22,204 nucleotides of DNA. Source: a virus. Its lineage: Duplodnaviria > Heunggongvirae > Uroviricota > Caudoviricetes. The position numbers and the translations under genes are program-made. The DNA lies in the IMG/VR virus record IMGVR_UViG_2703718843_000003, positions 1 through 22,204 of that record; one strand, given 5' to 3'. A model generated the notes under the pieces. The model did not search any database. It saw only the letters and a list, made by a program, of their open reading frames with translations, and was not told the DNA's origin. Shown piece after piece: positions 1,294 to 21,347 of the stretch. How positions within the stretch are numbered: the stretch's first letter is position 1; each line of letters begins with the position of its first letter.

Positions 1294-4200
1294 TTAATCT
1301 CTGTCTTTGAAGCTGCCGCGATTGAGTCGCGCAAGGCGGGCCATTTCGGCATTCACTGCGTCGGCGGCAATCCGGCCAATTTCGCGAGCGTCCTGCCGGT
1401 CAACGCCGTGGAGGTGTACGTGGATTTCCCCCGTAAAGCCGCCAGCGGCAACCGATGTATTGCTGGCGCTGCGACTGACTGGTAAAAGTTCAGCCTGTTT
1501 AACGGGAAGCGATGCCGCCACCACTGCGGGGCGTGCGCTTAACCCGTTGTTCCTGACCGTGCTGGCCAGTTGCGATTCCTTCCATTCCCCACGAACGGCC
1601 AGCGCACGCGGCAGGTTTTTAAACACGATATCGCCGGGGCCGATCTTCTTCGTGTTATCGGCTGTCGCTTTAGTGTTGCTGTCGATGCTTTGCAACCTGC
1701 GCATAGTGCCGTTATCGCCGGTCAGCGGTGATGTGGGTTGCGGTGCGCCAGGCGGAACGTTATTCACCTCAACTTTTTTCGGCGTAACCTTCGCGATATC
1801 TCCCTGAAGAAGGGCGACTTTGTCCTGAAGAACAGCCATGCGCTGTGCGTCTTCGATCTTCTTTCTGGCTTTTTCGGCCTCATCTGGCAGAACGCCGAGC
1901 TTTTCAAGGATCCAGGCTAATGTATCCAGCAGCATTTTTGCAGGCGTCAGAACAAGCTGGAGCGCACCACCAAGAACGTTACCGAATACCTCACCGGCGC
2001 TGGCGCACTTATCCAGTGTTTCCTTGCAGGACTCCATCGGGGAAAGCAGAGATTTGAACCAGTTAAAGGCCTGGCTGACAGCGCTGCCTATCGCGTCAAA
2101 GATGGGTCTGAACTGCGAGAAGGTGTCACGTAACGGGGCCAGTCTTTCCATGATGCCGGTGAATACGCCAGCAAAAAATGCTTTAAGAGGCTCCCAGTAA
2201 CGCCAGATAAGCACCCCGGCAGCAATAAACGCCGCCACTATCAGGCCAATCGGACTCAACAGCAGCGACAGCGCTGTACCCAGCATAGACACCGCCGCAG
2301 TGATCATGCTCCATATGGCCGGTAAACCTGTCAGGCGAAGGGCGAGCATACCGAGGTTTTTTGTCAGTGCTCCCAGCGCGGCACCAGGTGTAAGAAATAC
2401 CCCCATGAGTGCGCCGCGCATAGCGGGGATGATGGTTGAAATTCCGCGCATTTTTCCTGCTAACGAGCCGAGAACTGGCCCCCATCCGCGCACGCTTGCC
2501 ATTGCCGGGCCGGAAGCTGTGCCGAGTGTTCGCAGAGCGGCAATCGTTCCGGTTATGCCTCTGCCCCCTGTCAGCAGGGTAAAACTTAACTGAAGTTTAG
2601 CCAGTGGACCCATCAGCAGACCGATCGCCAGCGATGTGCCGCCAATGGCGGCGGTCAGTGCCAGAACGCTACCACCGACAACCAGCAGGGATTGTGCGAG
2701 CTTCGGATTCTCCTTAGCCCACTGCGTCATATTCCCCACAACGTCACTCAGTCCCTGAGTCAGGCCACGAAGCTGATTGTTGACGAGATCGTTAATCTGG
2801 ATGCGGAAGCCTTCCCAGGCGCTGTCCAGATTTTTGAGATCGCCATCAAGGTTATCCGCCATTATTTTGGCGGCTTTCTGCGCCTCACCTTTGGCGTTTT
2901 TCAGTTCACCCAGCAGCTTCTGAAGTTCACCGCTACCGGCTGACATAACCAGAGCCTGGAATGACTTTGACGCCTCTTCACCGGCAATATCTTTGAAGAA
3001 TGAGAGCTTATCGGTATCCCCGTACTTGCTGATCTTTTTATAGAGATCGGTTAGAACCACTTCAGCAGGGCGCATTTTCCCCGTTGCGTCAGCGACTTCT
3101 ACGCCCAATTCTTTAAGCGCGGTTTTTGCCCTGCCGGTTGGTGCGGCAAGGCGTGAAAATGTGGCCTGCAAACCCGTACCGGCGATACTCCCGCGCAGGC
3201 CTACGTTCGCCATCACGCCGATCATGGCCGTGGTCTGTTCGACGCTGACTCCAAGGTTGGAAAGACCTGTCCCGGCGTACTTCATCGCTTCACCGATATT
3301 TTGCAGATCGGTGTTGGTTCTGGTGAACGCGCCAGTTAATACGTCGCTGACGCGATCCATTTCTTTGGGGTCGAGACGGAACTGAGACAGGATGTTTGAG
3401 CTGATATCAGCGCTTTCACCTAAATCCATACCACCGGCCAGCGCCATATTGAGCACACCAGGCAGTGCGGCCTGAATGGCCTGCGGAGTGAAACCGGCCA
3501 TAGCGAGAAATGCCTGCCCACTGGCGGCGTCGGTCGTGGTGAACTGTGTTTCAGCACCCAGCTTTTTGGCCTGGTCACGAAGTGCTGAAAAGTCAACGGA
3601 GCTTTTATCTATGCGGGTCAGCGCCTGCACGCGGGACATTTCCCGATCAAACCCAACGGCGGGGGATAAGAACCGCCCCGCTACGTAACCGGCAGCAGTG
3701 GCCCCGGCAACGGCCATCGTGCCACCGCCGCGAAGTTTACCCGCTGTTTGCTGCATCTGGTCGTAGCGTGCGCGTGCCTGCGTGACAGCGGCAAGCTGTC
3801 GCCGTTCCCGCTCAAGCGTCTGGTTGTACTGTTCGGTTCGACGTATGGCACTCTGAATGGTGCGATCGCTTCCGACAAGTGAAACGCCGTGACTGCGCAG
3901 CGCCTGTGAGGCGGCGCGCAGCTTAACCATTTCCTGTGTGCGTGCAGAGTTAAGGCGCTCCAGCTTTGCGGCCAGCGCTGCCATATGTGCTTTTTGCTTG
4001 TCTGTAAGCTGTGTACCTTCCCGCTGCGCCTGATTCAGCCCTTCAAGCGTCCGGCTGGCGTCGTCAATTTTGCGGGAGGTCTTTTGCACGCTGTCGCGCA
4101 GACGGTTGAATGTGCGGGACTGACTGTCCAGATCTTTAATGCTGGACTGCGTTTTTTTGAGGGATTCAGACAAACCGCCCGCACTCTGGCGGGCGGCATT

Positions 4201-4296
4201 GACCGGGCGGGTAAGTTTATCGATCGCGCTGAACGCGACGCGGATATTAAGGCTTTTCACTGTCACTGGCTCCACTTCGGACAGCCGCCCGCTCAC
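1294..4296 (-). CDS. T: Tail tape measure protein gpT
   Basis: 1000-codon ORF; coiled-coil N-terminal third, Gly/Ala-rich hydrophobic central region, position between E/E' and U. The codon at 4296 is GTG, not ATG; alternative GTG starts at 4266 and 4260 (GGAG 9 nt upstream of the latter), so the 5' end is uncertain. Confidence 0.85.
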   Translation of the reverse strand: MSGRLSEVEPVTVKSLNIRVAFSAIDKLTRPVNAARQSAGGLSESLKKTQSSIKDLDSQSRTFNRLRDSVQKTSRKIDDASRTLEGLNQAQREGTQLTDKQKAHMAALAAKLERLNSARTQEMVKLRAASQALRSHGVSLVGSDRTIQSAIRRTEQYNQTLERERRQLAAVTQARARYDQMQQTAGKLRGGGTMAVAGATAAGYVAGRFLSPAVGFDREMSRVQALTRIDKSSVDFSALRDQAKKLGAETQFTTTDAASGQAFLAMAGFTPQAIQAALPGVLNMALAGGMDLGESADISSNILSQFRLDPKEMDRVSDVLTGAFTRTNTDLQNIGEAMKYAGTGLSNLGVSVEQTTAMIGVMANVGLRGSIAGTGLQATFSRLAAPTGRAKTALKELGVEVADATGKMRPAEVVLTDLYKKISKYGDTDKLSFFKDIAGEEASKSFQALVMSAGSGELQKLLGELKNAKGEAQKAAKIMADNLDGDLKNLDSAWEGFRIQINDLVNNQLRGLTQGLSDVVGNMTQWAKENPKLAQSLLVVGGSVLALTAAIGGTSLAIGLLMGPLAKLQLSFTLLTGGRGITGTIAALRTLGTASGPAMASVRGWGPVLGSLAGKMRGISTIIPAMRGALMGVFLTPGAALGALTKNLGMLALRLTGLPAIWSMITAAVSMLGTALSLLLSPIGLIVAAFIAAGVLIWRYWEPLKAFFAGVFTGIMERLAPLRDTFSQFRPIFDAIGSAVSQAFNWFKSLLSPMESCKETLDKCASAGEVFGNVLGGALQLVLTPAKMLLDTLAWILEKLGVLPDEAEKARKKIEDAQRMAVLQDKVALLQGDIAKVTPKKVEVNNVPPGAPQPTSPLTGDNGTMRRLQSIDSNTKATADNTKKIGPGDIVFKNLPRALAVRGEWKESQLASTVRNNGLSARPAVVAASLPVKQAELLPVSRSASNTSVAAGGFTGEIHVHLHGVDRQDAREIGRIAADAVNAEMARLARLNRGSFKDRD

Positions 4297-4725
4297 GCCA
4301 GGCTATGACTTCGCCCAGTTCCATCGTGAAGACTTCAGAGGGCGGCCAGTTGAAAACAACCGCGATATCAGCGACCAGATCGTCGATCAGGTCGAACCGC
4401 AGGAGTGTTACTGATTCTCCGTCTCCGCCTCGCTCGACGCTCCAGACCCCGCAGGTGTCAAAAAAGGGACGAGCGCTTCAGACAGGCTGACAAAATCGCG
4501 CGTATCCATTTCGTTGATTTCGGTCTGTTTGAGGCGTGGTGACGTGACACGGGTCAGCAGTACCGCCACCGAATCCACATCCATATTCATCACGTTGACC
4601 AGCTTCAGACCGCGCAGGGAGCCAGCCTGTTTGATCTCATCCGTGATCGTTACCTGAGTAATTTTCTCATCGCCGCGAACAACGGGTTTTGCCAGAGTAA
4701 TGGCGTTATCGTTTTTTTTGCTCAT
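4247..4725 (-). CDS. E': gpE+E' fusion made by programmed -1 ribosomal frameshift
   Basis: After a -1 slip at T TTT TTG (+ strand 4459-4465) the reading frame stays open for about 70 codons (DTCGVWSVERGG...WPPSEVFTMELGEVIAWRERAAVRSGASDSEKP) and ends at TAA 4247-4249, overlapping the start of T. Hand-translated from the sequence. Confidence 0.6.
4408..4725 (-). CDS. E: Tail assembly chaperone gpE (zero-frame product)
   Basis: Starts MSKKNDNAITLAKPVV with GGAG 11 nt upstream of ATG at 4725; upstream of T on the same strand as in P2; contains the slippery site near its 3' end. Confidence 0.8.
   Translation of the reverse strand: MSKKNDNAITLAKPVVRGDEKITQVTITDEIKQAGSLRGLKLVNVMNMDVDSVAVLLTRVTSPRLKQTEINEMDTRDFVSLSEALVPFLTPAGSGASSEAETENQ
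4459..4465 (-). other. Slippery heptamer T-TTT-TTG for the E to E' -1 frameshift
   Basis: Minus-strand CCC TTT TTT GAC in the gpE frame; the canonical X XXY YYZ heptamer used by P2-like and lambda-like tail chaperone pairs. Confidence 0.6.
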
Positions 4726-4773
4726 TGTTGAATGCTCCGGGCGGCAAGGCTGTGCCGCCACTTATCAGGTTAA

Positions 4774-5289
4774 TCAGTTACCCATTCCCAGCGCAGACGT
4801 GATGCGGTCAGGGTAGATATTTTTGCCGTCTTTCTTGTAGATGAAGTTCAGAAGATCAAACTCAAACAGCGGCTTATCGTCGATGGTGAGTTTGTAATAA
4901 GTGTTCTTCATCGTGTAGCTGACGGAGGTGTCTTCTCCCTGCTTGCTTTCGCCGCCGTCCATTTCGGTGATGCGGCCGCGCAGTTCGACCTCAACCAGCA
5001 GGCTTTCACCATCGGTGTAATACTCCCCGGCGAAGCGGAAACGGGTTTCGTCGATATCGCCGCAGTAGTTCAGCAGTAACGACTGAACCAGACCGCCAAC
5101 CACCATCGTGGTATCCAGCGCGCCACTGTCCAGACCGAGATCCACCGCAGCGGAGCCAATCATCCCGCCCCCCTGAAAATCTTCAGTTTTACGGGTCAGT
5201 TTTGGCAGCGTCACGGAAGAGACTTTGCCGATGCAGTTGCTGCCGTTCACAAAGCAGGTGAACAGGCGTAGTTTGTGAGGAACCGCCAT
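4774..5289 (-). CDS. FII: Tail tube protein gpFII
   Basis: 171-aa ORF immediately downstream of the sheath gene (FI stop and FII ATG adjacent at 5290/5289); size and position match P2 FII. Confidence 0.9.
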   Translation of the reverse strand: MAVPHKLRLFTCFVNGSNCIGKVSSVTLPKLTRKTEDFQGGGMIGSAAVDLGLDSGALDTTMVVGGLVQSLLLNYCGDIDETRFRFAGEYYTDGESLLVEVELRGRITEMDGGESKQGEDTSVSYTMKNTYYKLTIDDKPLFEFDLLNFIYKKDGKNIYPDRITSALGMGN

Positions 5290-6471
5290 TTATGCACCTC
5301 CCAGGGAAGAAAACGCCGATTCGAAATACTCGTCCGTGAAGGTCTGGTAGAGCGTAAGATCTTCCATTGGCGGAACCGGTGTATATTTATAGCGAATGCG
5401 CACCTGACCCTGACGGAGACCGGTTGTCGGGTTATCCAGGATATCAAACCAGCATTCAGCACCAATCAGCCGCCCCTGCGTCACCAGCGAATTGAGTTTG
5501 CCGCTGATGCCGCTGACCACGTCCTTGACGTTGGCCGGGGTTAGCGGTTCGTCCACTGATTCAAATTGCGCCTCAGCGATACTGTCAGCCAGAATCTGTG
5601 CCGTACGGGTGTAAACCTCAAAAATATAATCTTTGGTGTCCGTAACGCGGTTGCCCCAGAACCGGAAACCATTACGCTTGATGAGCGTCGTGATCTCCTT
5701 GTTGTTGAGTTCGTTCGCGTCGCTGTCTTCGGCCTGAAGCGACCAGAAAACATCCTGCGAAATACCCAGCACGTTGCTTACCGACACATTGGAAAGCGAT
5801 TTGTGCCAGCCCTGATTGTTGTCAATCAGCGCGCGAAGGCCGCAGGCATAGGCCGGGGCCGGGAAGGTTTCGTTCTCTCCGGTCAGCGGGTTGTAGGCGA
5901 TGAAATCAGGCCAGATAAGCATTAGCTCGCGATAGGCGAAGGTCGCACGATATGCGGTAGCTTCAGCCATCGTTTTGCAGCCGTAGCAACTGGCGTAAAC
6001 AAACGCGCGCAAATTCTGAGCAATCACACACAACGCAGAAGTGACTTCTTCCGTGTCGTAGCCCGGCACGGCCAGAATGCGTGGACGATAACCAACCTTC
6101 TGCTCGGCAGTCAGAAACGCGTACATGCCGGTATAGCTGCCGTCTTCTGCCGTGCCACCCATGATGAGCTGCGACTGCGTTTTACCGCCTTCCTCTTCCG
6201 TGGCTGCTGCCACGCGCACAACGATAACCTTCGGACTGGTCTGGTCAGCGATGGCTTTAAGCGTTTTGTACAGGGAGCCGGTTTTACCCGCCTTATCCAG
6301 CACGTTGTTAACCCGCGTCAGCAACACGGGGGTATTCAGGGGAAAGGTTTCCGCATCGGCATCATCCGCCACGGCAACGACCCCAATGACACTTGATTCA
6401 ATGTCATTGATGGCCGTCACCAGGTCGGTATTCTCCCGGACGCGTACACCGTGGAAACGTGTCTCTGACAT
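5290..6471 (-). CDS. FI: Contractile tail sheath protein gpFI
   Basis: Start chosen at ATG 6471 (MSETRFHGVRV...), preceded by GGTGG, matching the remembered P2 FI N-terminus MSDYHHGVQV; conserved C-terminal region (GFRFWGNR...YKYTPVPPMEDLT). The track ORF start at 6516 is an upstream extension. Confidence 0.9.
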   Translation of the reverse strand: MSETRFHGVRVRENTDLVTAINDIESSVIGVVAVADDADAETFPLNTPVLLTRVNNVLDKAGKTGSLYKTLKAIADQTSPKVIVVRVAAATEEEGGKTQSQLIMGGTAEDGSYTGMYAFLTAEQKVGYRPRILAVPGYDTEEVTSALCVIAQNLRAFVYASCYGCKTMAEATAYRATFAYRELMLIWPDFIAYNPLTGENETFPAPAYACGLRALIDNNQGWHKSLSNVSVSNVLGISQDVFWSLQAEDSDANELNNKEITTLIKRNGFRFWGNRVTDTKDYIFEVYTRTAQILADSIAEAQFESVDEPLTPANVKDVVSGISGKLNSLVTQGRLIGAECWFDILDNPTTGLRQGQVRIRYKYTPVPPMEDLTLYQTFTDEYFESAFSSLGGA

Positions 6472-6624
6472 GTTAGCCACCATTACGTTATTGAGTTCGC
6501 AGTGATAATCCCTCATGTTGGAATGTCACTCACGCTATTGCGGGTCTGGCCGGACGGCGACAACAAAAACCGATTTGGTGTCTCCCGCGCGCGTGGGATC
6601 CTTCGCCGGAAGAAGGGGGAAAGC

Positions 6625-7761
6625 ATGGCACTTACAGACCTGACAAAATCACTTAACGACGCCATCAGCACTTATAACGATTCACTGACCGAGGCGGTAA
6701 AAAGTCCGGGATTCAGCATAACGATGGGCGGTAAGGTACGGACGCAGCTTGACGAGCGGATCATGTCGTTGTCACTGACGGACAACCGGGGTTTTGATGC
6801 CGATCAGCTTTCCATTTCTATTGATGACAGTGACGGTATGGTTGCTCTGCCTCCGCGTGGCGCTGAGCTTGCGGTATCAATTGGCTGGCTGGGTGAGCCG
6901 CTGATTTACAAGGGACTGTACACGGTTGATGAGGTATCCCATGAAGGGCCGGGTGATATCATTGGTATTACTGCCCGCAGCGCTGATTTTCGTGAAGAGT
7001 TCAACGTAAAGCGCGAAGTCTCATGGCATGACGTGACCGTTGAGCGCGTTGTGTCGGCCATAGCGCACCGCTACGGTCTGAAAGCGCAGATCAGTGAAAT
7101 GCTCATGGATATTGAGATTGATCACGCTGACCAGACGCAGGAAAGCGATATGTCATTCCTTACCCGCATGGCGGAAATGCTGGGCGCAATTGCCACCGTA
7201 AAGAACGGCAGTCTGCTGTTTATCCTGCCGGGCGGAGGTGTTACCGCTGACGGGAAGGCGCTCCCCTCTGCCAGTATTAACCGGACGAGCGGCGATCGGC
7301 ACCGCTTTCGTATTGCCGATCGGGATGCGTATACCGGCGTCAGGGCTTACTGGCTGGATCTCAATTTTGGCAAAAAGAAAAAGGTCAGTGTTAAGCGCCG
7401 TAAGCCAGCAAAGCCCAAAAAAGAGAAGAGCAGCAGCCGTGAGGGCGATTACATGGAGGGCGCTGACGGTAACGTCTATGTGCTGCGCAAAACCTACCAG
7501 AATGAAGAGGCGGCGAAACGTGCTGCGGCGGCAAAATGGCAACAGCTTCAGCGTGGTGCGGCAGAGTTTTCGATCACCCTGGCGCGTGGCCGCGCTGAGC
7601 TTTACCCCGAAATGCATGTCACGGTTAGCGGTTTTAAGGATGAAATAGACAATCAGGACTGGATTATTGCGCGTGCTGAGCACGTCATAGACGACAGCGG
7701 TTTTACCACCCGGCTGGAGCTGGAAGCAAAAATACCTGACTGGATAGCGGAAACTGAATAA
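6625..7761 (+). CDS. D: Tail protein gpD (late control gene D family)
   Basis: ATG at 6625 with AAGGGGGA SD; sequence (SLTDNRGFDADQL..SWHDVTV..DRHRFRIADRDAYTGV..KWQQLQRGAAEFSI) matches my recollection of P2 gpD including the basic lysine-rich linker. Confidence 0.9.
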   Translation: MALTDLTKSLNDAISTYNDSLTEAVKSPGFSITMGGKVRTQLDERIMSLSLTDNRGFDADQLSISIDDSDGMVALPPRGAELAVSIGWLGEPLIYKGLYTVDEVSHEGPGDIIGITARSADFREEFNVKREVSWHDVTVERVVSAIAHRYGLKAQISEMLMDIEIDHADQTQESDMSFLTRMAEMLGAIATVKNGSLLFILPGGGVTADGKALPSASINRTSGDRHRFRIADRDAYTGVRAYWLDLNFGKKKKVSVKRRKPAKPKKEKSSSREGDYMEGADGNVYVLRKTYQNEEAAKRAAAAKWQQLQRGAAEFSITLARGRAELYPEMHVTVSGFKDEIDNQDWIIARAEHVIDDSGFTTRLELEAKIPDWIAETE

Positions 7762-12363: not shown

Positions 12364-14629
12364 AGCCTCCGGGCATTTTGTCCCTCCGTCAGCATTTGCC
12401 GCAGGCACCGGTGAGACGTTTACCGGTGCTTATGCATGGAACGCGCCACGCGAGGCCGTCGGGCGCGAAAGACCCCTTACACGTGACGAGATGCGTCAGG
12501 TGCAAGGTGTTTTATCCACGATTAACCGCCTGCCTTACTTTTTGCGCTCGCTGTTTACTTCACGCTATGACTACATCCGGCGCAATAAAAGCCCGGTACA
12601 CGGGTTTTATTTCCTCACATCCACTTTTCAGCGTCGTTTATGGCCGCGCATTGAGCGCGTGAATCAGCGCCATGAAATGAACACCGACGCGTCGTTGCTG
12701 TTTCTGGCAGAGCGTGACCACTATGCGCGTCTGCCGGGGATGAATGACAAGGAGCTGAAAAAGTTTGCCGCCCGTATTTCATCGCAGCTTTTCATGATGT
12801 ATGAGGAACTCTGCGATGCCTGGGTGGATGCGCATGGCGAAAAAGAATCACTGTTTACGGATGAGGCGCAGGATCATCTGTATGGTCATGTTGCTGGCGC
12901 TGCACGTGCTTTCAATATTTCCCCGCTCTACTGGAAAAAATACCGTAAAGGACAGATAACCACGAGGCAGGCATATTCTGCCATTGCCCGCCTGTTTAAC
13001 GATGAGTGGTGGACTCATCAGCTTAAAGGCCAGCGTATGCGCTGGCATGAAGCGTTACTGATAGCTGTCGGGGAGGTCAATAAAGACCGTTCTCCTTATG
13101 CCAGTAAACATGCCATTCGTGATGTGCGTGCGCGCCGCCAGGCAAATCTGGAATTTCTTAAATCGTGTGACCTTGAAAACAGGGAAACCGGCGAGCGCAT
13201 CGACCTTATCAGTAAGGTGATGAGCAGTATTTCTAATCCTGAAATTCGCCGGATGGAGCTGATGAACACCATTGCCGGTATTGAGCGTTACGCCGCTGCA
13301 GAGGGTGATGTGGGGATGTTTATCACGCTGACCGCGCCGTCAAAGTATCACCCGACACGTCAGGTCGGAAAAGGCGAAAGTAAAACCGTCCAGCTTAATC
13401 ACGGCTGGAATGATGAGGCATTTAATCCAAAGGATGCGCAGCGATATCTCTGCCATATCTGGAGCCTGATGCGCACGGCATTCAAGGATAATGATTTACA
13501 GGTCTACGGTTTGCGAGTCGTCGAGCCACACCACGACGGAACGCCGCACTGGCATATGATGCTTTTTTGTAATCCACGCCAGCGTAACCAGATTATCGAA
13601 ATCATGCGTCGCTATGCGCTCAAAGAGGATGGCGACGAAAGAGGAGCCGCGCGAAACCGTTTTCAGGCAAAACACCTTAACCGGGGCGGTGCTGCGGGGT
13701 ATATCGCGAAATACATCTCAAAAAATATCGACGGCTATGCACTGGATGGTCAGCTCGATAACGATACCGGCAGACCGCTGAAAGACACTGCCGCGGCTGT
13801 TACCGCATGGGCGTCAACGTGGCGCATTCCGCAATTTAAAACGGTTGGCCTGCCGACAATGGGGGCTTACCGTGAACTACGCAAATTGCCTCGCGGCGTC
13901 AGCATTGCTGATGAGTTTGACGAACGCGTCGAGGCTGCACGCGCTGCCGCAGACAGTGGCGATTTTGCGCTGTATATCAGCGCGCAAGGTGGGGCAAATG
14001 TCCCGCGCGATTGTCAGACTGTCAGGGTTGCCCGTAGCCCGTCGGATGACGTTAACGAGTATGAGGAAGAAGTCGAGAGAGTGGTCGGCATTTACGCGCC
14101 TCATCTCGGCGCGCGTCATATTCATATCACCAGAACGACGGACTGGCGCATTGTGCCGAAAGTGCCAGTCGTTGAGCCTTTGACTTTAAAAAGCGGCATC
14201 GCCGCGCCTCGGAGTCCTGTCAATAACTGTGGAAAGCTCACCGGTGGTGATACTTCGTTACCGGCTCCCACACCTTCTGAACACGCCGCAGCAGTGCTTA
14301 ATCTGGTTGATGACGGTGTTATCGAATGGAATGACCCGGAGGTCGTGAGGGCGCTCAGGGGCGCATTAAAATACGGGCTGAGAACACCAAATCGTCAGCA
14401 GAGAAACGGAAGCCCGTTAAAACCACATGAAATTGCACCATCGGCCAGACTGACCCGGTCGGAAAGAATGCAAATTACCCGTATCCGCGTTGACCTTGCT
14501 CAGAACGGTATCAGGCCGCAGCGATGGGAGCTTGAGGCGCTGGCGCGTGGCGCGACCGTAAATTATGACGGGAAACCTTTCACTTATCAGGTCGCTGATG
14601 ATTGGCCGGGATTTTTGTTACCCATTTGA
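12353..14629 (+). CDS. A: Replication initiation endonuclease gpA (rolling-circle nickase)
   Basis: Start MTVKASGHFVPPSAFAAGTGETFTGAYAWNAPREAVGRERPLTRDEMRQ is near-identical to the remembered P2 gpA; contains the HUH-like GTPHWHMMLF region and the active-site Tyr region AGYIAKYISKNIDGYAL. Confidence 0.9.
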   Translation: MTVKASGHFVPPSAFAAGTGETFTGAYAWNAPREAVGRERPLTRDEMRQVQGVLSTINRLPYFLRSLFTSRYDYIRRNKSPVHGFYFLTSTFQRRLWPRIERVNQRHEMNTDASLLFLAERDHYARLPGMNDKELKKFAARISSQLFMMYEELCDAWVDAHGEKESLFTDEAQDHLYGHVAGAARAFNISPLYWKKYRKGQITTRQAYSAIARLFNDEWWTHQLKGQRMRWHEALLIAVGEVNKDRSPYASKHAIRDVRARRQANLEFLKSCDLENRETGERIDLISKVMSSISNPEIRRMELMNTIAGIERYAAAEGDVGMFITLTAPSKYHPTRQVGKGESKTVQLNHGWNDEAFNPKDAQRYLCHIWSLMRTAFKDNDLQVYGLRVVEPHHDGTPHWHMMLFCNPRQRNQIIEIMRRYALKEDGDERGAARNRFQAKHLNRGGAAGYIAKYISKNIDGYALDGQLDNDTGRPLKDTAAAVTAWASTWRIPQFKTVGLPTMGAYRELRKLPRGVSIADEFDERVEAARAAADSGDFALYISAQGGANVPRDCQTVRVARSPSDDVNEYEEEVERVVGIYAPHLGARHIHITRTTDWRIVPKVPVVEPLTLKSGIAAPRSPVNNCGKLTGGDTSLPAPTPSEHAAAVLNLVDDGVIEWNDPEVVRALRGALKYGLRTPNRQQRNGSPLKPHEIAPSARLTRSERMQITRIRVDLAQNGIRPQRWELEALARGATVNYDGKPFTYQVADDWPGFLLPI

Positions 14630-14814
14630 GTAAAAATACAGCGTGATTTTATATGTCTTTGAATGGATTATGCGAAGCACCTCTAAGGTAGATGAGGAGC
14701 AATAGTGTGTTGAATCAGAAGGCTAAATTGTATTGAATCGTTAGCATGTAATTGAAGGCAGCTATTTGATTCGAGTCATAAAAGAGCATCTATTTCGGTT
14801 AATAAAACCATTGC

Positions 14815-14860
14815 GAGTGACTTTATGTCGAAGCATAATTCATCTCGAGCGAAGTCTTGC
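14815..14860. repeat. Direct repeat copy 1 (GAGTGACT ... GAGCGAAGTCTTGC)
   Basis: Shares an 8-mer and a perfect 14-mer with copy 2 at 15100-15124; copy 1 has a 24-bp internal expansion. Confidence 0.45.
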
Positions 14861-14889
14861 TAGTCTTTCATCGGATTGATGACGGGCGC

Positions 14890-14919
14890 AAAAAAACCAC
14901 CCTGGCAGGTGGTTTTTTT
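14890..14919. terminator. Bidirectional rho-independent terminator (A7-CCACC..GGTGG-T7)
   Basis: Symmetric hairpin flanked by an A run and a T run; closes the replication operon on + and the small minus-strand ORF on -. Confidence 0.65.
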
Positions 14920-14931
14920 GTTTGAAGCATA

Positions 14932-15045
14932 CTAAAGAAAAATACTTACATGGATATTACTGACGTTTACTGACAAACCACTCGGACTACCATATGGATA
15001 GCCAAAGAGGGCCAGAACGAGAATGCAGTAATAGCACTTCTTCAT
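14932..15045 (-). CDS. Candidate 37-codon mini-gene encoding a small hydrophobic Cys-containing peptide
   Basis: Minus-strand AGGAGG SD 4 nt before ATG (15045); peptide MKKCYYCILVLALFGYPYGSPSGLSVNVSNIHVSIFL; stop TAG at 14932-14934 followed 13 nt later by the bidirectional terminator. Not in the ORF track (below its length cutoff). Coding status unproven. Confidence 0.3.
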   Translation of the reverse strand: MKKCYYCILVLALFGYPYGSPSGLSVNVSNIHVSIFL

Positions 15046-15099
15046 ATCGCCTCCTGTAAGCAGAGGGCAATTTCCGCCGATATATGCGCTTCTAAGGCG

Positions 15100-15124
15100 G
15101 AGTGACTATTGAGCGAAGTCTTGC
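15100..15124. repeat. Direct repeat copy 2 (GAGTGACTATTGAGCGAAGTCTTGC)
   Basis: See copy 1; the two copies bracket the terminator and the mini-ORF. Confidence 0.45.
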
Positions 15125-15701
15125 CCTGAAATAATGCTCTGTTTAAACGCAAAGTGATCTGGCATATCACTGAACAGAGAACCTGAACAACACAACATAT
15201 AGTATGTCGTTGTTTCTGGTTGCATTTTATGTTGTGTAATACTGGTTTTGCATCAAGGATGTTTGAGCTTTTTTTGATATAGCTCAAAGTAAAAAGCAGA
15301 GACTACGGATGATAAGGTCTTGAAAGCAATGTAAATTTTTTAAAGTTGTGAGTGGCTAGAAATGCACAGTTTCAATATGGCGGATTTAAACAAGTAATTA
15401 AAAATAGCGCCATAAATTCCAATAAAATCATTATGTTGCGTTTTCTGTGGAAACTGCGGTGACTCTGAAATTTTCTTTTAGTGTCGCTGAGGTTTAACAA
15501 CTCGCTGCGCAAGTAGTTAGTGTTTTTTTAACTCAATATCCTGATTTATAAGGTTTTTTATAAATCGTTGGCTGATTGCGCGTATTCATCTCGTGTTATC
15601 AGCAAAGATAAGCGCTATATGCAAAACTGAATGCATATATGATGTCGAAAATGTTATGGGAAAACGTGGATTAGTGTTATAGTAATGGCTGAAAAACAGC
15701 A

Positions 15702-15766: not shown

Positions 15767-16252
15767 ATGAGCTATGCAGCTAAAAAACTGCTTGACCGCT
15801 ATTGGGATCGCCGACTACCTGTCGATCCGTTTAAGCTTGCTAAAGCGTGGGGTGCTCGTGTTGAAGCACTTGAGGAATCGGCTTATAACAACGATGGGTT
15901 AAGCGGTCTGGCTGTCATCAAAAAGGGTGTCCATAGGATTTATTTTGATTCTAGTGAACATTCTAATCGTCAACGTTTTACTGTTGCACACGAGTTAGGT
16001 CATCATGTGCTGGGGCATACCCAGGACGGAGAGTACCATCGGGATAATGTCGGGAATTATTCAACAGGTGCTCGTGATTACCGTGAGGTTGAAGCAAACA
16101 AGTTTGCTGCTGAGTTGTTAATGCCTGAGTCTGCTATACGTCAATTGGTATCCAGAGAAGGTATTGATAGCACTTTGAGATTAGCAAGCATCTTTAATGT
16201 ATCAGAAGCCGCTATGCATTGGCGCTTAAAGAGCTTAGGAATGGCTTATTAA
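15767..16252 (+). CDS. ImmA/IrrE-family (M78-like) zinc metallopeptidase, orphan (no adjacent HTH partner)
   Basis: HEXXH motif H75-E-L-G-H79 followed by the family signature E107-V-E-A-N-K-F-A-A-E-L-L-M-P; ideal SD AGGAGG 5 nt upstream of ATG; AT-rich codon usage. Confidence 0.8.
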   Translation: MSYAAKKLLDRYWDRRLPVDPFKLAKAWGARVEALEESAYNNDGLSGLAVIKKGVHRIYFDSSEHSNRQRFTVAHELGHHVLGHTQDGEYHRDNVGNYSTGARDYREVEANKFAAELLMPESAIRQLVSREGIDSTLRLASIFNVSEAAMHWRLKSLGMAY

Positions 16253-16278
16253 TTAGCCTTTAACTTTTAACCTGTTTA

Positions 16279-16318
16279 AAATCACCTTTACGTTTGTACA
16301 TGTAAGGGTGATTTTTTT
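16279..16318 (+). terminator. Intergenic hairpin plus T7 tract (terminator/attenuator) that also contains the only SD-like sequence for the downstream gene
   Basis: AAATCACC (16279-16286) pairs with GGTGATTT (16307-16314), 20-nt loop, T run 16312-16318 ending at the ATG of the membrane-protein ORF; AAGGGTG in the 3' arm lies 8 nt before that ATG. Confidence 0.45.
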
Positions 16319-16918
16319 ATGGCTGATATTGATTTATCTGGACAGTCCCCAGAGCAAGGAACCACTCCTAAGGGCGATTTAGATCCTGATATCCTTATAA
16401 GGCGAGATCGACGCGATGGTATAGAGCGTAGAAGTATGCGATTAGTGCTCTCTGCCGTTGTGCTTTGTTTTGCTTGTACATTTCTATGGCAGGGGCTTAA
16501 CTTTGCTTTGGCTGTTGGAAATGGCTTGCTGGAAGCGAAAAGCAGTATTGCCACAGCGATAACACAAAAAGTAGATGCACAAACTTGTGTTTCAGCAGAA
16601 AAATGTTCTGCTTTATCTGCGGATCCGAAGATGGCTGATGAGAGGATAACACCATCTTCAGACACTAATAAAGTTAGAAAATCTATTTCTGGTTTATCCA
16701 CCGATTGGTTATCGGCCAGTTCTCTAATAGCTATTGTTGCATTCATCCTTGGTGTGGGTTTAACTTTGCTTTTGACTCTTCTTAAATCAGCATTTCAACA
16801 CCCGACAGATAAAGACTTTAGAACAAAGTCGACATCTAATACTATTGAGTTGGCCACGCCAATCAGTGAATTAATAATTGGTGTTCTGAATATAATTAAA
16901 GACAAACTATCTAAGTAA
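16319..16918 (+). CDS. Membrane protein with two predicted TM helices and a soluble N-terminal Arg/Asp-rich region
   Basis: Hydrophobic stretches RLVLSAVVLCFACTFLWQGLNFALAVG and LIAIVAFILGVGLTLLLTLL; no recognisable catalytic motif; 5' end uncertain (alternative Met at 16436). Confidence 0.65.
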   Translation: MADIDLSGQSPEQGTTPKGDLDPDILIRRDRRDGIERRSMRLVLSAVVLCFACTFLWQGLNFALAVGNGLLEAKSSIATAITQKVDAQTCVSAEKCSALSADPKMADERITPSSDTNKVRKSISGLSTDWLSASSLIAIVAFILGVGLTLLLTLLKSAFQHPTDKDFRTKSTSNTIELATPISELIIGVLNIIKDKLSK

Positions 16919-16959
16919 AGCATTAGTTGTGATTTTTTATTGGTTTTAGTGATAATACA

Positions 16960-16994
16960 TCTCCAGTACTTATTGCTACTGGAGAGTATTTTTA
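16960..16994. terminator. Bidirectional terminator between convergent cargo genes
   Basis: TCTCCAGTA-(8 nt loop)-TACTGGAGA perfect 9-bp stem followed by T-rich tract on +; 16 nt from the stop of the minus-strand 313-aa gene. Confidence 0.6.
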
Positions 16995-17000
16995 GTCGTT

Positions 17001-17942
17001 TTATATTTTTAATGTTAGTGAATGATATTCACGAGAGTTCACGTTCGATGTGATGTAATCGGGGGCGTTAACACCAAGAATCGCAACGAGCAATCGGCAA
17101 ATTAAAGCCTGCATTTGTTGTAATATGTCATCTCCATATTGATAATTGTTAATAGTGGTAAAGCCAAGTGGTTGACCATGAAACATAGCTTCATGAAAGT
17201 TTTCATTGCGGATGTTTGTAATGTTTTTTTTGCCTGTAACCCATGATGGTCGTGGTATGCCATAAGTTTTGCAGATCCACTTCAAGCGCCTGGAGTGATT
17301 TAGAGTCTTTTCTGTACACTTGTTCTTTTCTGCCCATGTTAAAGCAAAGCAACTATCCAGTGCCATATAAAGATACTGGAATTTTTCGAAGCTAAGGTAT
17401 TGTGGGTTTTGGGATAAAAATAGTGCATGCACTATTGCTGCTATATTTATTGGTGCGTGTTTGGTTTTTTTCTCGCTAGACATGTATTTGAGTGCTAATT
17501 CTATAACCTCTTTTTCAGAGCACTTGACCAGAATAAAGTCAGTTAATTTGCTGGGTTTTATTGGGGTTGCGTCTAAAAAACCGGCATCAGTAGTTGTTAA
17601 TCTTATCCCTTTGAAAAAAGACAGACACCACACAGCAAAATTGAGAGTTTCTAGTGAAGATGTATTTTTTAATTTTAGTGAGTGTGTTTTGGGTAAGCCA
17701 AATACTCGTTGGCTAAAAGGCATTGTGGATATGCCTCCATTGAGGTTATATACTTCTTGGTTTCCTGGGTATATCCAACCGTTAATAACATTTCTGTGAT
17801 TGTTTATAAGATTTGTTTTTTCCGCTAGACCGGGTAAAGTAAGTAAAGAAAAATCATCAGTTTCAACGTTAACCTCTACTGGATAGTATCCAAACTCAGC
17901 TTCAATATCATTGGATTGCTGTTCGTCAACTTTACCTTGCAT
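17001..17942 (-). CDS. Hypothetical 313-aa cargo protein, unknown family; possible HEPN-like R-x4-H motif
   Basis: Own SD (GGAG 6 nt before ATG 17942), AT-rich promoter-like sequences upstream, own terminator; R245-N-E-N-F-H250 (nt 17193-17210) fits the R-x4-6-H pattern of HEPN RNases, but no other HEPN evidence from inspection. Confidence 0.7.
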   Translation of the reverse strand: MQGKVDEQQSNDIEAEFGYYPVEVNVETDDFSLLTLPGLAEKTNLINNHRNVINGWIYPGNQEVYNLNGGISTMPFSQRVFGLPKTHSLKLKNTSSLETLNFAVWCLSFFKGIRLTTTDAGFLDATPIKPSKLTDFILVKCSEKEVIELALKYMSSEKKTKHAPINIAAIVHALFLSQNPQYLSFEKFQYLYMALDSCFALTWAEKNKCTEKTLNHSRRLKWICKTYGIPRPSWVTGKKNITNIRNENFHEAMFHGQPLGFTTINNYQYGDDILQQMQALICRLLVAILGVNAPDYITSNVNSREYHSLTLKI

Positions 17943-18179
17943 ACATTGCTCCGGTCAAAAATAGGCTCGATAATTCTCGTAAGCCTATCATGTTCGCAAA
18001 GTATCCATACCTGTGGATTTTGTAAATTTAAGTTGATTTGTCATTAAATAAGCCGTGCATGCAACAAGTGAATGTTTTTGCATGCGTCGGGGATGCCCGT
18101 TCCGGCTGCTTGCGGTCAGAGCTGGTGCGGATCCATAGTATCTAAGCAACTGCATTAAAACCGCCCTATGAAGCGGGCG

Positions 18180-18367: not shown

Positions 18368-19402
18368 TCAGCCGTTGTCAGTGTCCAGTGAGTAGTTTTT
18401 AAAGCGGATGACCTCCTGACCGAGCCAGCCGTTTATCTCGCGGATCCTGTCCTGTAGCGGGATAAGCTCATTGCGGACAAAGACCTTTGCCACTTTCTCA
18501 ATATCACCCAGCGACCCGACGTTCTCCGGCTTGCCGCCCATCAACTGAAAGGGGATGCGGTGCGCGTCCAGCAGGTCAGCGGCGCTGGCTTTTTTGATAT
18601 TAAAAAAATCGTCCTTCGTCGCCACTTCACTGAGCGGGATAATTTTAATGCCGTCGGCTTTCCCCTGCGGGGCATAGAGAAACAGGTTTTTAAAGTTGTT
18701 GCGGCCTTTCGACTTCACCATGTTTTCGCGGAGCACTTCGATATCGTTGCGATCCTGCACGGCATCGGTGACGTACATGATGTATCCGGCATGTGCGCCG
18801 TTTTCGTAATACTTGCGGCGGAACAGCGTGGCCGACTCATTCAGCCAGGCAGAGTTAAGGGCGCTGAGATATTCCGGCAGGCCGTACAGCTCCTGATTAA
18901 TATCCGGCTCCAGCAGGTGAAACACGGAGCCGGGCGTGAAGGCTGTCGGCTCGTTGAAGGACGGCACCCACCAGTAAACATCCTCCTCCACGCCACGACG
19001 GGTATATTTGGCCGGTGAGGTTTCCAGTCTGATGACCTTACCGGTGGTGCTGTAACGCTTTTCCAGAAACGCATTACCGAACACCAGAAAATCCAGCACA
19101 AAGCGGCTGAAATCCTGCTGGGAAAGCCACGGATGCGGGATAAATGTCGAGGCCAGAATATTACGTTTGACGTAAATCGGGGAGCTGTGATGCACGGCAG
19201 CACGCAGGCTTTTTGCCAGACCGGTAAAGCTGATTGGTGGCTCATACCATCTGCCGTTACTGATGCACTCGACGTAATCCAGAATGTCACGGCGGTCGAG
19301 TACCGGCACCGGCTCACCAAAGGTGAATGCCTCCATTTTCGGGGCGCTGGCGGTCATTTTTTTTGCCGCAGGTTGCGGTGTTTTCCCTTTTTTCTTGCTC
19401 AT
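18368..19402 (-). CDS. Q: Portal protein gpQ
   Basis: 344 aa; position next to cos and downstream of P with TGATG stop/start overlap; sequence resembles remembered P2 Q. Confidence 0.9.
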   Translation of the reverse strand: MSKKKGKTPQPAAKKMTASAPKMEAFTFGEPVPVLDRRDILDYVECISNGRWYEPPISFTGLAKSLRAAVHHSSPIYVKRNILASTFIPHPWLSQQDFSRFVLDFLVFGNAFLEKRYSTTGKVIRLETSPAKYTRRGVEEDVYWWVPSFNEPTAFTPGSVFHLLEPDINQELYGLPEYLSALNSAWLNESATLFRRKYYENGAHAGYIMYVTDAVQDRNDIEVLRENMVKSKGRNNFKNLFLYAPQGKADGIKIIPLSEVATKDDFFNIKKASAADLLDAHRIPFQLMGGKPENVGSLGDIEKVAKVFVRNELIPLQDRIREINGWLGQEVIRFKNYSLDTDNG

Positions 19403-21174
19403 CAGTAAAACTCCAGAATGGTGGATGTCAGCGGGGTGCTGATACCGGCGGTGAGTGGCTCATTTAACAGGGCGTGCATGGTCGCCCAGGCGAGGTCGGC
19501 GTGGCTGGCTTCCTCGCTGCGGCTGGCCTCATAGGTGGCGCTGCGTCCGCTGCTGGTCATGGTCTTGCGGATAGCCATAAACGAGCTGGTGATGTCGGTG
19601 GCGCTGACGTCATATTCCAGACAGCCACGACGGATAACGTCTTTTGCCTTGAGCACCATTGCGGTTTTCATTTCCGGTGTGTAGCGGATATCGCGCGCGG
19701 CGGGATAGAACGAGCGCACGAGCTGGAACACGCCGACACCGAGGCCGGTGGCATCAATACCGATGTATTCGACGTTATATTTTTCGGTGAGTTTGCGGAT
19801 GGATTCAGCCTGGGTGGCAAAGTCCATGCCTTTCCACTGGTGACTCTCAAGTATTCTGAATTTGCCTCCGGCCACTACCGGCGGTGCCAGTACCACGCAT
19901 CCGGCGCTGTCGCCACGGTGTGACGGGTCGTAACCAATCCAGACCGGGCGGGAGCCGAACGGATTCGCGGCAAACGGCGCATAGTCTTCCCATTCTTCCA
20001 GCGTGTCGACCATGCAGCGTTGCAGCTCCTCGAACGGGAACACCGACGCCTTGTCGTCAACAAATTCACACATGAACAGGTTTTTAAAATCGTCGGCGCT
20101 GTTTTCGCGTTTAAGCTGCTCAATGTCGAACAGCGTGCAGCCACCTTTCAGGGCGTCCTCAATGGTGACAATCTGCCGCCACTGGCCGTCCGCACAGAGA
20201 AGCCCACCGGCAAGGGCGTTATGACTGACGTCGATTTCCACACGTTCGGCGGCGCTGGCGCGTCCCCGGTTGAACAGTTCACCCGACCAGAACGGGTAGG
20301 CGTCGTGCGCCAGCGTGGACGGGGTGGAGAAATAGGTCGAGCGCAGGTGACTCTGTGAGGCCATACCTGATGCCACCTTACGCAGTACCTGAAAATTCGG
20401 GATCCAGAAAATCTCGTCGACGTACAGGTCACCGTTATGGCTCTGTGCGGTGTTGGAGTTGGTGCCGAGAAAAATCAGTTTTGCGCCGTTATTGCCCAGG
20501 ACAATCGGGTCACCGGTCAGGTCAACGTCAACCAGCCGGGCAAAGGCGATGATGTATTCGCGGAACACATACGCCTGCGTTTTACTGGCCGACAGAAAAA
20601 TCTGGTTATGACCGGTTTTCAGGGCGCGCAGCAGCGCCTCGCGGGAAAAATAAAACGTTGCGCCAATCTGGCGGGATTTCAGGATATCGCGGATGCGGTG
20701 CTCAAGCCCGGCGCGATACCAGTGCAACTGATATTCGAAAGACTGCTCAAAGAAAATCTGCTCCAGCTTTTCGATGGCCTCGTCACTGAAAAAATTCTTT
20801 TTCGGTTTGCGACGCCCGCCTTTGTTGCGGTTAGCGACGTTCGGATTAAGGTCTGCCTCGTTGCCGGTCTGGCTGTAGCGGTTTACCCGTGCCAGTCGTT
20901 CAATCTGGCGTCCGAGCAGGTCAATTTCCTTGAAGTCACCGCCGGTTTTCTGCGGTTTGATGATGAGCTGGGTCAGCCGCGCTTCCAGGCTCATTTCGAC
21001 ACGGCTGATGGGGGCAACACTGTCCCAGCCGTCGCGCTGTTTCCAGCTCTGCACCGTCGGGCGTTTCATCTGCAACATGGCGGCAATCTGCGGCACGGAA
21101 AAACCCTGCCAGTACAGCAGCGCCGCCTGACGACGCGGGTCGTGTAAAAGAGTGGTGTCTGTGGTGATGGTCAT
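19402..21174 (-). CDS. P: Terminase ATPase (large) subunit gpP
   Basis: Start MTITTDTTLLHDPRRQAALLYWQG with GAGG SD 5 nt upstream; ATPase and nuclease-type regions; divergent from O as in P2. Track start 21204 is an upstream extension. Confidence 0.9.
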   Translation of the reverse strand: MTITTDTTLLHDPRRQAALLYWQGFSVPQIAAMLQMKRPTVQSWKQRDGWDSVAPISRVEMSLEARLTQLIIKPQKTGGDFKEIDLLGRQIERLARVNRYSQTGNEADLNPNVANRNKGGRRKPKKNFFSDEAIEKLEQIFFEQSFEYQLHWYRAGLEHRIRDILKSRQIGATFYFSREALLRALKTGHNQIFLSASKTQAYVFREYIIAFARLVDVDLTGDPIVLGNNGAKLIFLGTNSNTAQSHNGDLYVDEIFWIPNFQVLRKVASGMASQSHLRSTYFSTPSTLAHDAYPFWSGELFNRGRASAAERVEIDVSHNALAGGLLCADGQWRQIVTIEDALKGGCTLFDIEQLKRENSADDFKNLFMCEFVDDKASVFPFEELQRCMVDTLEEWEDYAPFAANPFGSRPVWIGYDPSHRGDSAGCVVLAPPVVAGGKFRILESHQWKGMDFATQAESIRKLTEKYNVEYIGIDATGLGVGVFQLVRSFYPAARDIRYTPEMKTAMVLKAKDVIRRGCLEYDVSATDITSSFMAIRKTMTSSGRSATYEASRSEEASHADLAWATMHALLNEPLTAGISTPLTSTILEFY

Positions 21175-21347
21175 GAATACCTCGCCGTGATGAATACACG
21201 GCAAGGCTACTGAGTCGCGACCTGCGATTCGCTAAGGTGCTGTTGTGTCAGTGATAAGCCATCCGGGACTGATGGCGGAGGATGCGCATCGTCGGGAAAC
21301 TGATGCCGACATGTGACTCCTCTAATCACTATTCAGGACTCCTGACA
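21175..21347. promoter_or_regulatory. Divergent late-promoter region between P and O (expected Ogr-dependent promoters)
   Basis: Position corresponds to the divergent late promoters of P2 (established map); contains inverted repeat GCCGTG-N7-CACGGC at 21184-21202. No exact TGT-N12-ACA element found by eye. Confidence 0.35.

Follow-up and report, generated by a model that had tools for sequence, protein, structure and literature searches.

What is a 37-codon open reading frame (ORF) doing in the intergenic DNA beside the replication gene of a prophage, between two copies of a repeat and just ahead of a terminator? The question is raised by IMG/VR virus record IMGVR_UViG_2703718843_000003, of which positions 1–22,204 were analysed here (the window); the window is a P2-like (Peduovirus) prophage. 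A first-pass annotation, made from the sequence alone, had offered three readings of this ORF: a gene for a small membrane peptide or type I toxin-like product, a leader peptide with a regulatory role, or an operator element in repeated form. We consider it probable (at roughly 0.7) that positions ~14810–15265 form a self-contained module that resembles a type I toxin–antitoxin system and belongs to a new family, comprising a small peptide gene and a convergent gene for an antisense small RNA (sRNA). The sequence features, conservation and covariation on which this reading draws were observed directly, in the window and in divergent relatives, which were collected by scanning viral and metagenome contigs with sequence patterns and filtering the matches by BLAST; these yielded 13 sequence groups, extending down to 66–74% DNA identity, whose carriers include P2-like prophages, IncF conjugative plasmids and an N15-like linear plasmid-prophage.

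The peptide gene and its translation signals are present in the sequence as the first-pass annotation had described them:

14932–15045, minus strand: 37-codon ORF (stop included) for the putative toxin MKKCYYCILVLALFGYPYGSPSGLSVNVSNIHVSIFL, starting at the ATG at 15045 (sequence, conservation, dN/dS)
15050–15055, minus strand: Shine–Dalgarno (SD) sequence AGGAGG, 4 nt before the ATG

In the peptide, a short basic N-terminus is combined with a hydrophobic segment that contains Cys and with a C-terminal half in which polar and hydrophobic residues alternate; with 37 aa, the basic N-terminus and the hydrophobic core, it belongs among the hydrophobic peptides of <60 aa that are looked for in type I systems. 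Conservation of the ORF in relatives had been named as a check, and in every divergent group the frame was kept (37–39 codons, 37–39 aa; peptides include MNRLCLCILVLTLFGYPVGSQSGWSVNVSHINVNISL, MKRLSYCIILLTLLGYPLGSQSGWSVDISNISVSIVM and MNRRDCVCLFVLALISQLAVGQGSWMIYIHQISLSIQVH), with GGAGG, GGTGG or GGAGA at the SD position and the stop 10–20 nt from the hairpin described below. Pairwise dN/dS ratios were 0.08–0.38, with substitutions concentrated at third codon positions (dS was saturated in the widest comparisons). Judged from these comparisons, the peptide sequence is under purifying selection, and the mini-gene encoding this conserved membrane-type peptide is a real gene. The ORF might alternatively be a regulatory leader peptide, or a chance ORF in the 3′ noncoding region of the gene A operon with the hairpin as operon terminator only, as could be supposed from its shortness, its intergenic position ending just before the terminator, and the failure of the NCBI pipeline to call it in RefSeq genomes. 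Yet it lies on the strand opposite to gene A with nothing downstream to regulate; its frame, length and amino-acid pattern persist at the lowest DNA identities with dN/dS well below 1; and the module occurs on plasmids that lack gene A, with promoters and a terminator of its own on unrelated mobile elements. A leader peptide or chance ORF is thus scarcely credible.

Database searches placed the peptide in a small family. Against 1.84 billion representative proteins, phmmer returned only 8 clusters, including further 37–38-aa members (for example, MKRLYHCILVLALIGYPVGSQSNWSVTVSQVSINVSL); the five short clusters were retrieved and are members of the module's peptide family, and the other three were not inspected. 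Profile scans of five family peptides against Pfam and NCBIfam gave no match, and in public databases the peptide carries no label beyond hypothetical or uncharacterised (ECW_m2278 of E. coli W is one case). Across the groups, no upstream or overlapping ORF was kept in frame or length, and a longer, mok-like reading frame was rejected, entries of 88–97 aa being lineage-specific read-through in which the upstream frame is open by chance.

What had first been described as a 25-bp direct repeat around the ORF resolves into two separate blocks, of which one stands out statistically and is conserved. Exactly two copies of the 14-mer GAGCGAAGTCTTGC are present, at 14847–14860 and 15111–15124 (0.01 matches expected per 22-kb window; two matches in 0 of 100 shuffles). 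The 8-mer GAGTGACT, at 14815–14822 and 15100–15107, is near chance (0.43 expected; two or more matches in 3 of 100 shuffles) and stands 24 nt from the 14-mer in one copy and 3 nt in the other. In relatives, the 8-mer diverges independently in each copy (for example, GGGTAACC versus GAATGACT), whereas a 12–17-nt core is retained in both. Nor do the copies bracket a single unit, as had been supposed: the left one forms the 5′ end of a putative convergent sRNA, and the right one, earlier thought to overlap the promoter of the ORF, would lie inside the 5′ untranslated region (UTR) of the peptide mRNA, ~93–107 nt past its probable start. The elements concerned are as follows:

14811–14839, plus strand: promoter of the putative antitoxin sRNA (−35 TTGCGA at 14811–14816, 17-nt spacer, −10 CATAAT at 14834–14839)
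14846–14920, plus strand: putative ~75-nt antisense sRNA, with ends predicted from the promoter and terminator
14847–14861, plus strand: sRNA seed, the left repeat copy, GAGCGAAGTCTTGC plus T (exact repeat, duplex prediction, covariation)
14863–14887, plus strand: sRNA middle hairpin (covarying consensus fold)
15111–15125, minus strand: sRNA target, the right repeat copy, in the mRNA 5′ UTR ~52 nt upstream of the SD

The sRNA promoter is the single plus-strand sigma-70-like match between 14400 and 16000, and its elements (TTG(C/T)(G/C/T) and GCATAAT, at 17–18-nt spacing) recur in 13 of the 13 divergent groups around a spacer whose sequence varies freely. In every group the repeat core starts 7–8 nt after the −10, and from the core to the T-run of the hairpin is 72–76 nt. 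The window's version of the sRNA has a minimum free energy (MFE) of −29.5 kcal/mol (z = −3.6), and the consensus fold leaves the 17 nt at the 5′ end unpaired, continues with a middle hairpin that has changed on both sides at 7 pairs (with G·U pairs consistent with the plus strand) and closes with the terminator; for the window's own sRNA, a weak 5-bp hairpin is predicted within the otherwise mostly single-stranded 5′ seed. A neighbouring antisense RNA gene complementary to the toxin mRNA, as type I systems have, is therefore found, in silico only, in this putative convergent gene, whose seed is predicted to pair with the mRNA 5′ UTR; the suggestion of the first-pass annotation to look for an antisense RNA proved useful.

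With the sRNA copied from the plus strand and the mRNA from the minus strand, directly repeated DNA segments yield transcripts that are complementary to one another, and a contiguous seed:5′ UTR duplex of 15–18 bp was predicted in all 12 groups modelled. Among 10 distinct seed/target pairs, 4 intermolecular base pairs had changed on both sides, and 94.7% of cells in the intermolecular helix were paired (versus 24–44% with the partner slid by 1–3 columns); the covariation score was matched by 0 of 500 shuffles. For example, the distant plasmid group has GAGCAAAGCCTTACC in both copies (three matched changes) and locus L104 has CTTGTCA in both. Transitions between copies within the 16-bp core all set an sRNA U opposite an mRNA G, never C against A, and unpaired cells were confined to the helix ends, plus one G-to-T change next to the end in L005. 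This evidence, from ~5–7 lineages, is good but not overwhelming that the repeat is an RNA–RNA pairing site, and the natural seed variants GAGCGAAGUCUUGC and GAGCAAAGCCUUACC offer ready specificity controls.

Direct repeats that flank an ORF and its terminator, with the left copy immediately after a promoter-like site and hence in a plausible operator position, could also be DNA sites (operators, or recombination or insertion scars around a 264-bp unit) with no functional sRNA, and gene conversion could homogenise the 14-mers. Several observations make this very unlikely. The module is found on unrelated elements without a common adjacent regulator gene; the transition differences in the core are all G·U-compatible, which DNA-site models do not predict; insertion scars would be expected to differ wholly between insertions rather than at 3–4 matched positions; and the left copy is set within a complete small-RNA gene, with a promoter that is conserved, a middle hairpin that covaries, and a terminator. 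Repeats of 14–17 bp are, moreover, too short for efficient homologous gene conversion. The repeated operator element of the first-pass annotation falls with this explanation, since the copies change in such a way that RNA pairing is preserved.

Further upstream, at 14765–14780, TTTGA-N6-TCATA resembles a CRP half-site pair, with its centre ~73 nt upstream of the predicted sRNA start; the pair is retained in the closer groups and degenerate in the distant plasmid group.

The other half of the proposed pair is a long, structured mRNA leader, for which the following elements were delineated:

15224–15229, minus strand: probable −10 TAAAAT of the peptide mRNA, with a predicted start near 15217 and an mRNA of ~328 nt
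15137–15179, minus strand: hairpin SL-A (CUCUGUU..GUGAU..AUCAC..AACAGAG; RNAalifold consensus)
15073–15101, minus strand: hairpin SL-B (UCCGCC ... GGCGGA; RNAalifold consensus, compensatory changes)
15121–15127, minus strand: 5′ strand AGGGCAA of a long-range stem, overlapping the 5′ part of the sRNA target
15064–15070, minus strand: C-rich 3′ strand UUGCCCU of this stem, a candidate anti-SD that is also complementary to the SD

SL-A has 13 pairs, 8 of them with compensatory changes (counted from the pair table), and the G·U pairs of SL-A (for example, in 8 of 10 sequences at one position) and SL-B fit minus-strand RNA only; in L037, SL-B becomes CCUUCAG/CUGAAGG. Covarying minus-strand helices upstream of the target imply that the transcript starts to the right of 15179 and not at the repeat. 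On these grounds a first promoter guess that overlapped the right repeat (TAGTCA-N17-TATATC) was dropped and the mRNA promoter was placed near 15224–15229, where TARAAT is kept in 13 of 13 groups as the sole conserved −10-like element right of 15179, followed by a 5′ hairpin and preceded upstream by a conserved block CAAACATCYTTGATGCAAA (15247–15265) and an A-rich stretch. The mRNA would thus carry a 5′ UTR of ~170 nt (MFE of the whole −97.5 kcal/mol, z = −3.8). The long-range stem, which encloses the target and SL-B, appears in the full-length MFE structure of the window and in 8 of 12 homologue MFE structures, and its changes, aligned by eye, are compensatory (AGGGCAA/UUGCCCU versus GGUGGCA/UGCCACC versus GGUGACA/UGUCACC). 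In the free mRNA the SD is predicted to be mostly base-paired (P(unpaired) 0.0–0.4).

Upstream of this −10, conservation extends over a longer block (15247–15311; TTTGCATCAAGGATGTTTG...TTTTTTTGAT...CAAAGTAAAAAG, including ATCAA-N17-TTGAT) in 13 of 13 groups, and the block alone matched Salmonella and phage records at ~81% identity; its role may be that of an UP element or of a regulator's binding site.

Both transcripts are predicted to end at a single hairpin:

14889–14920, both strands: perfect 13-bp inverted repeat CAAAAAAACCACC/GGTGGTTTTTTTG around the loop CTGGCA, an intrinsic terminator in either direction

The first-pass annotation had correctly noted a bidirectional terminator after the ORF, at a distance of 13 nt; the base of the hairpin in fact begins 11 nt past the stop codon. 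An A-run flanks it on one side and a T-run on the other, which makes the terminator bidirectional, so that it would end both the sRNA and the peptide mRNA, and probably the gene A operon as well. A consensus terminator scan did not pick up the 14889–14920 hairpin, probably because A·T pairs extend its stem into the T-run. The loop CTGGCA was present in 28 of 28 homologous metagenome loci and in none of 57 unrelated loci that have this stem, under a search pattern that left the loop free; the pattern fixed the stem, so that stem invariance cannot be judged from these hits, and in the two BLAST-found plasmid copies that were inspected (L133 and L134) stem and loop were identical. The sRNA and mRNA would overlap by 30 nt at the terminator, with two exactly complementary loops, of which that on the sRNA strand (CUGGCA) contains CUGG and fits the YUNR motif and that on the toxin strand (UGCCAG) has no YUNR. 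By analogy, this loop complementarity fits a par-like loop–loop first contact.

The hairpin accounts for the few weak resemblances to known RNAs: Rfam searches at the gathering threshold and at E ≤ 10 gave sub-threshold, terminator-driven matches only, among them one to RNAI at 14888–14998 (27.8 bits versus a gathering score of 47). One contig recovered by the scans, L038, has the hairpin in common and was set aside as a ColE1-type plasmid origin, in which a nearly identical hairpin AAAAAACCACCCTGGCAGGTGGTTTTT lies at 5915–5950. We take the ColE1/RNAI resemblance to be limited to the terminator.

A working model can be assembled from these parts, in which we infer the RNA ends, translation, toxicity, relative half-lives and biological role from sequence. 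An ~328-nt minus-strand mRNA from ~15217, with its ~170-nt structured 5′ UTR and 37-codon ORF, would face an ~75-nt convergent sRNA starting at ~14846 from the conserved promoter, both ending at the one bidirectional terminator. The fully complementary terminator hairpins, through their invariant 6-nt loops, could make an initial kissing contact, and the first ~15 nt of the sRNA would pair with the mRNA 5′ UTR at 15111–15125. Because this pairing is ~52 nt upstream of the SD, repression would probably be indirect: in a three-part switch, the sRNA on its target would free the other strand of the long-range stem, which could then sequester the SD. Alternatively or additionally, RNase III might cut the seed duplex or the 30 nt by which the RNAs overlap at the terminator, or a ribosome standby site might be blocked. 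Were the element lost or its transcription stopped, the sRNA, if short-lived, would disappear, allowing synthesis of a peptide that would injure the membrane, which could stabilise the prophage or plasmid, or abort a phage infection.

Several points weigh against this reading. None of the profile and family databases searched identifies the peptide as a toxin, and its hydrophobic segment of ~12–16 residues is short for a classical transmembrane toxin. The mRNA promoter has no recognisable −35 (TGCAAA stands at 17 nt). In partition-function modelling the SD was mostly paired with or without the target blocked, and blocking the target raised anti-SD:SD pairing clearly in only 5 of 12 groups. The covariation sample amounts to ~5–7 lineages, and concerted change of the repeats could in principle be due to gene conversion. 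Finally, most of the distant homologues were found by a pattern that fixed the terminator stem, which makes stem conservation partly an ascertainment effect.

The peptide and antisense sRNA could also both be real without the peptide being a toxin, the product being instead a small membrane or exported protein (acting, for example, in superinfection exclusion or membrane-protein modulation) whose level is tuned by the sRNA. All the comparative evidence is equally compatible with such a peptide, and a short hydrophobic stretch joined to a polar, conserved C-terminal half suggests a specific interaction over generic pore formation; for TimP, discussed below, growth was seen at endogenous levels when timR was deleted, and its authors consider a toxicity-independent function (PMC7667032). 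On the other hand, tightly silenced toxins and addiction modules are usually recognised by just such a combination: a heavily structured 5′ UTR with a sequestered SD, a cis-encoded sRNA dedicated to it, and presence on plasmids, linear plasmid-prophages and prophages. We regard a non-toxic product as unlikely, if a serious contender, and favour the toxin; of the first-pass proposals, that of a small membrane peptide or toxin-like gene is the one that fits the comparative evidence.

To place the proposed toxin–antitoxin-like module among known systems, we compared it with type I loci of similar layout. The par locus of pAD1 combines convergent promoters, a shared bidirectional terminator, oppositely read direct repeats, an SD-sequestering structure and mobile-element carriage (PMC7472228). 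The layout of the module agrees with these points one by one. In par and the module alike, convergent promoters (here predicted from motifs) and the shared bidirectional terminator make the terminator stem-loops complementary, a direct repeat is read in opposite directions, the peptide is small (33 aa in Fst, 37 aa in the module), the SD is sequestered by intramolecular structure and loci are carried on plasmids and phages. Unlike the Firmicutes par-like loci, however, the module resides in Gram-negative Enterobacteriaceae; it has one conserved repeat where par has two (DRa and DRb), and this repeat lies ~52 nt upstream of the SD, whereas those of par cover the toxin SD and start codon. Fst has a PXXXG(C) motif and a charged C-terminal tail; the module peptide has neither, its C-terminus being uncharged and without a Pfam match. 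The YUNR-type motif sits in the toxin RNA loop in par and in the sRNA terminator loop (CUGG) in the module, although it is absent from some par homologues (PMC7472228). No sequence homology between the module and par/Fst was detectable.

The peptide and its leader recall instead the timPR system, in which the sRNA binds far upstream of a sequestered SD and the toxin is a 38-aa signal-sequence-like peptide (PMC7667032, PMC11228461, PMC13000454). TimP (38–41 aa) and the module peptide both have a basic N-terminus, then a Cys-containing hydrophobic stretch, and an N/S-rich polar second half (MKIRCFCIVLIV versus MKKCYYCILVLA and MNRLCLCILVLT; E. coli TimP, MKIRCFCIVLIVSG..., has the same N-terminal pattern). 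Both loci have (in the module, by prediction) an ~300-nt mRNA with a long structured 5′ UTR and a sequestered SD, sRNA pairing far upstream of the ribosome-binding site (RBS), and a complementarity visible as a DNA direct repeat. As to a TimP/TimR-like switch, the module's target lies 52 nt upstream of a mostly paired SD, and in modelling, target blocking changed SD pairing inconsistently. The two differ in that timR and timP are divergent neighbours with separate terminators, chromosomal and core, whereas the module's genes are convergent, with one terminator and the sRNA gene downstream of the ORF, and are carried on mobile elements. The NCBIfam model toxic_TimP (NF040796) did not match the module peptide at E ≤ 10 (E. 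coli TimP scores 86.8 bits), the Rfam family RyfA (RF00126) did not match the module even at E ≤ 10, a profile–profile alignment with TimP (hhalign) covered 11 N-terminal columns only at 12% probability, and TimP was not among the 8 phmmer clusters. TimP thus appears, by analogy, to be the closest known resemblance of the peptide, with homology not demonstrable.

The E. coli toxin mRNAs of the tisB, zorO, dinQ and shoB type are likewise long and structured, with a blocked SD (PMC11228461, introduction, and general knowledge). Like the module, tisB/IstR-1, zorO/OrzO, dinQ/AgrB and shoB/OhsC have a complementary stretch of ~15–20 nt that lies in the 5′ UTR of the toxin mRNA, well upstream of its RBS; unlike it, the pairs are divergent without a shared terminator, and the toxins, transmembrane peptides of a single helix, do not resemble the module's in sequence. 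Several systems of this type need 5′ processing, on which the evidence for the module is neutral. In hok/sok (plasmid R1 parB and others), an addiction module of plasmids and prophages, a small membrane peptide is paired with an antisense RNA, Sok, which overlaps the hok/mok 5′ region in cis. The module shares with it the plasmid- and prophage-borne setting and the combination of a small membrane-type peptide with an antisense RNA, but has no conserved overlapping frame and no Pfam match (Hok/Gef included), and its peptide is shorter.

Given the absence of detectable homology, the convergent layout, a start region that the repeat leaves uncovered and a peptide unlike Fst, we place the module outside par/Fst and timPR and, as it is not Hok-like either, assign it provisionally to a new type I toxin–antitoxin-like family. 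[quoted passage not shown] If confirmed, this would be a new type I toxin–antitoxin family in the best-studied bacteria, one that joins two known designs, the par-type shared terminator with direct repeat and the timPR-type remote control of a sequestered RBS. The par/Fst design (convergent genes, kissing terminator loops, direct-repeat seed) is otherwise described for Firmicutes only, in the sources cited. More tentatively, and with the odds against it, the module may be an unrecognised Enterobacteriaceae type I family that reached the par/Fst design independently, placed a TimP-like, Sec-signal-like peptide under a remote switch, and serves both the addiction of clinically important Klebsiella IncF plasmids and abortive infection or anchoring at the P2 cargo edge.

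In the window, the end of replication gene A is at 14629, the genes for portal and terminase occupy 18368–21204 on the minus strand and the P2 cos sequence GGCGAGGCGGGGAAAGCAC lies near 18177; the module takes up the left end of the variable cargo region that separates gene A from the portal gene. An E. coli AH21 prophage is near-identical, and there the NCBI pipeline annotates nothing from gene A to the ImmA/IrrE gene; one Salmonella phage record annotates the 37-codon ORF, as a hypothetical protein. The stretch 14630–15394 is common to 150–152 of 5426 complete E. coli genomes, on P2-like prophages, always directly after gene A, with cargo beyond it that varies (ImmA/IrrE, a SIR2 protein, an IS element). 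About 1680 genomes have this type of gene A, so that the module is present in roughly 1 of 11 such prophages. In some genomes no annotated gene follows the module, and the stretch makes up most of the 1.08-kb gap between gene A and the portal gene. Two such loci (L004 and L006, from E. coli MNCRE44 and EC12; 4001–5082) have a 1.08-kb interval that consists of the module and cos region with zero annotated genes, which means that the module is retained even where no annotated cargo gene is present.

Beyond prophages, a BLAST search of PLSDB located the module on >400 plasmids, most of them conjugative IncFIB/IncFII plasmids of Klebsiella (K. pneumoniae), where it is unannotated. One copy sits between a Toprim replication protein (RepA) and a protelomerase, from which its carrier was read as an N15-like linear plasmid-prophage, one further copy adjoins a TraI relaxase gene, and others adjoin resolvase, HNH and Abi-like genes. 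Such a spread over prophages, a linear plasmid-prophage and plasmids is typical of addiction modules. The module is thus in ~3% of complete E. coli genomes and on >400 sequenced plasmids, yet annotated nowhere, and plasmid addiction, if true, would bear on the persistence of resistance plasmids. A tblastn search against phages gave three near-identical copies only. One scan of genome contigs with the UTR pattern returned a single contig, labelled as a Pirellulaceae metagenome-assembled genome and not inspected, and a promoter-plus-seed pattern gave 5 extra viral-contig matches, of which the three that were read (L042, L043 and L046) were chance matches within coding regions.

Some individual records deserve mention. 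The metagenome contig L093 carries two diverged copies of the whole module (3287–3870 and 6209–6791), ~3 kb apart. The Salmonella plasmid p96A29192-65 (L134, 6668–6763) carries, besides a distant copy of the module, an annotated DinQ-like type I toxin (dqlB) and ccdAB within 4 kb; addiction modules cluster there. In dozens of complete E. coli assemblies (for example, NZ_CP064847.1 and NZ_CP172212.1), the match begins at record position 2278, so that the record begins at the first base of the 2277-nt prophage gene A; such genomes seem to have been rotated to the P2 replication gene instead of dnaA. Two records labelled DH5alpha (NZ_CP026085.1 and NZ_CM135829.1; 4.83 Mb) carry the module, with identities that match E. 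coli W and LY180; because a P2-like prophage with the module is unexpected in K-12 derivatives, these labels may be wrong.

Beside the module in the window, the cargo at 15767–17942 consists of three genes. The first encodes an ImmA/IrrE M78 peptidase (15767–16252; top PADLOC match capP, 1e-30), and the other two, for proteins of 199 aa (16319–16918, plus strand) and 313 aa (17001–17942, minus strand), had no Pfam or PADLOC match; together, the three could make up a defence system, as yet uncharacterised, in the interval from gene A to the portal gene.

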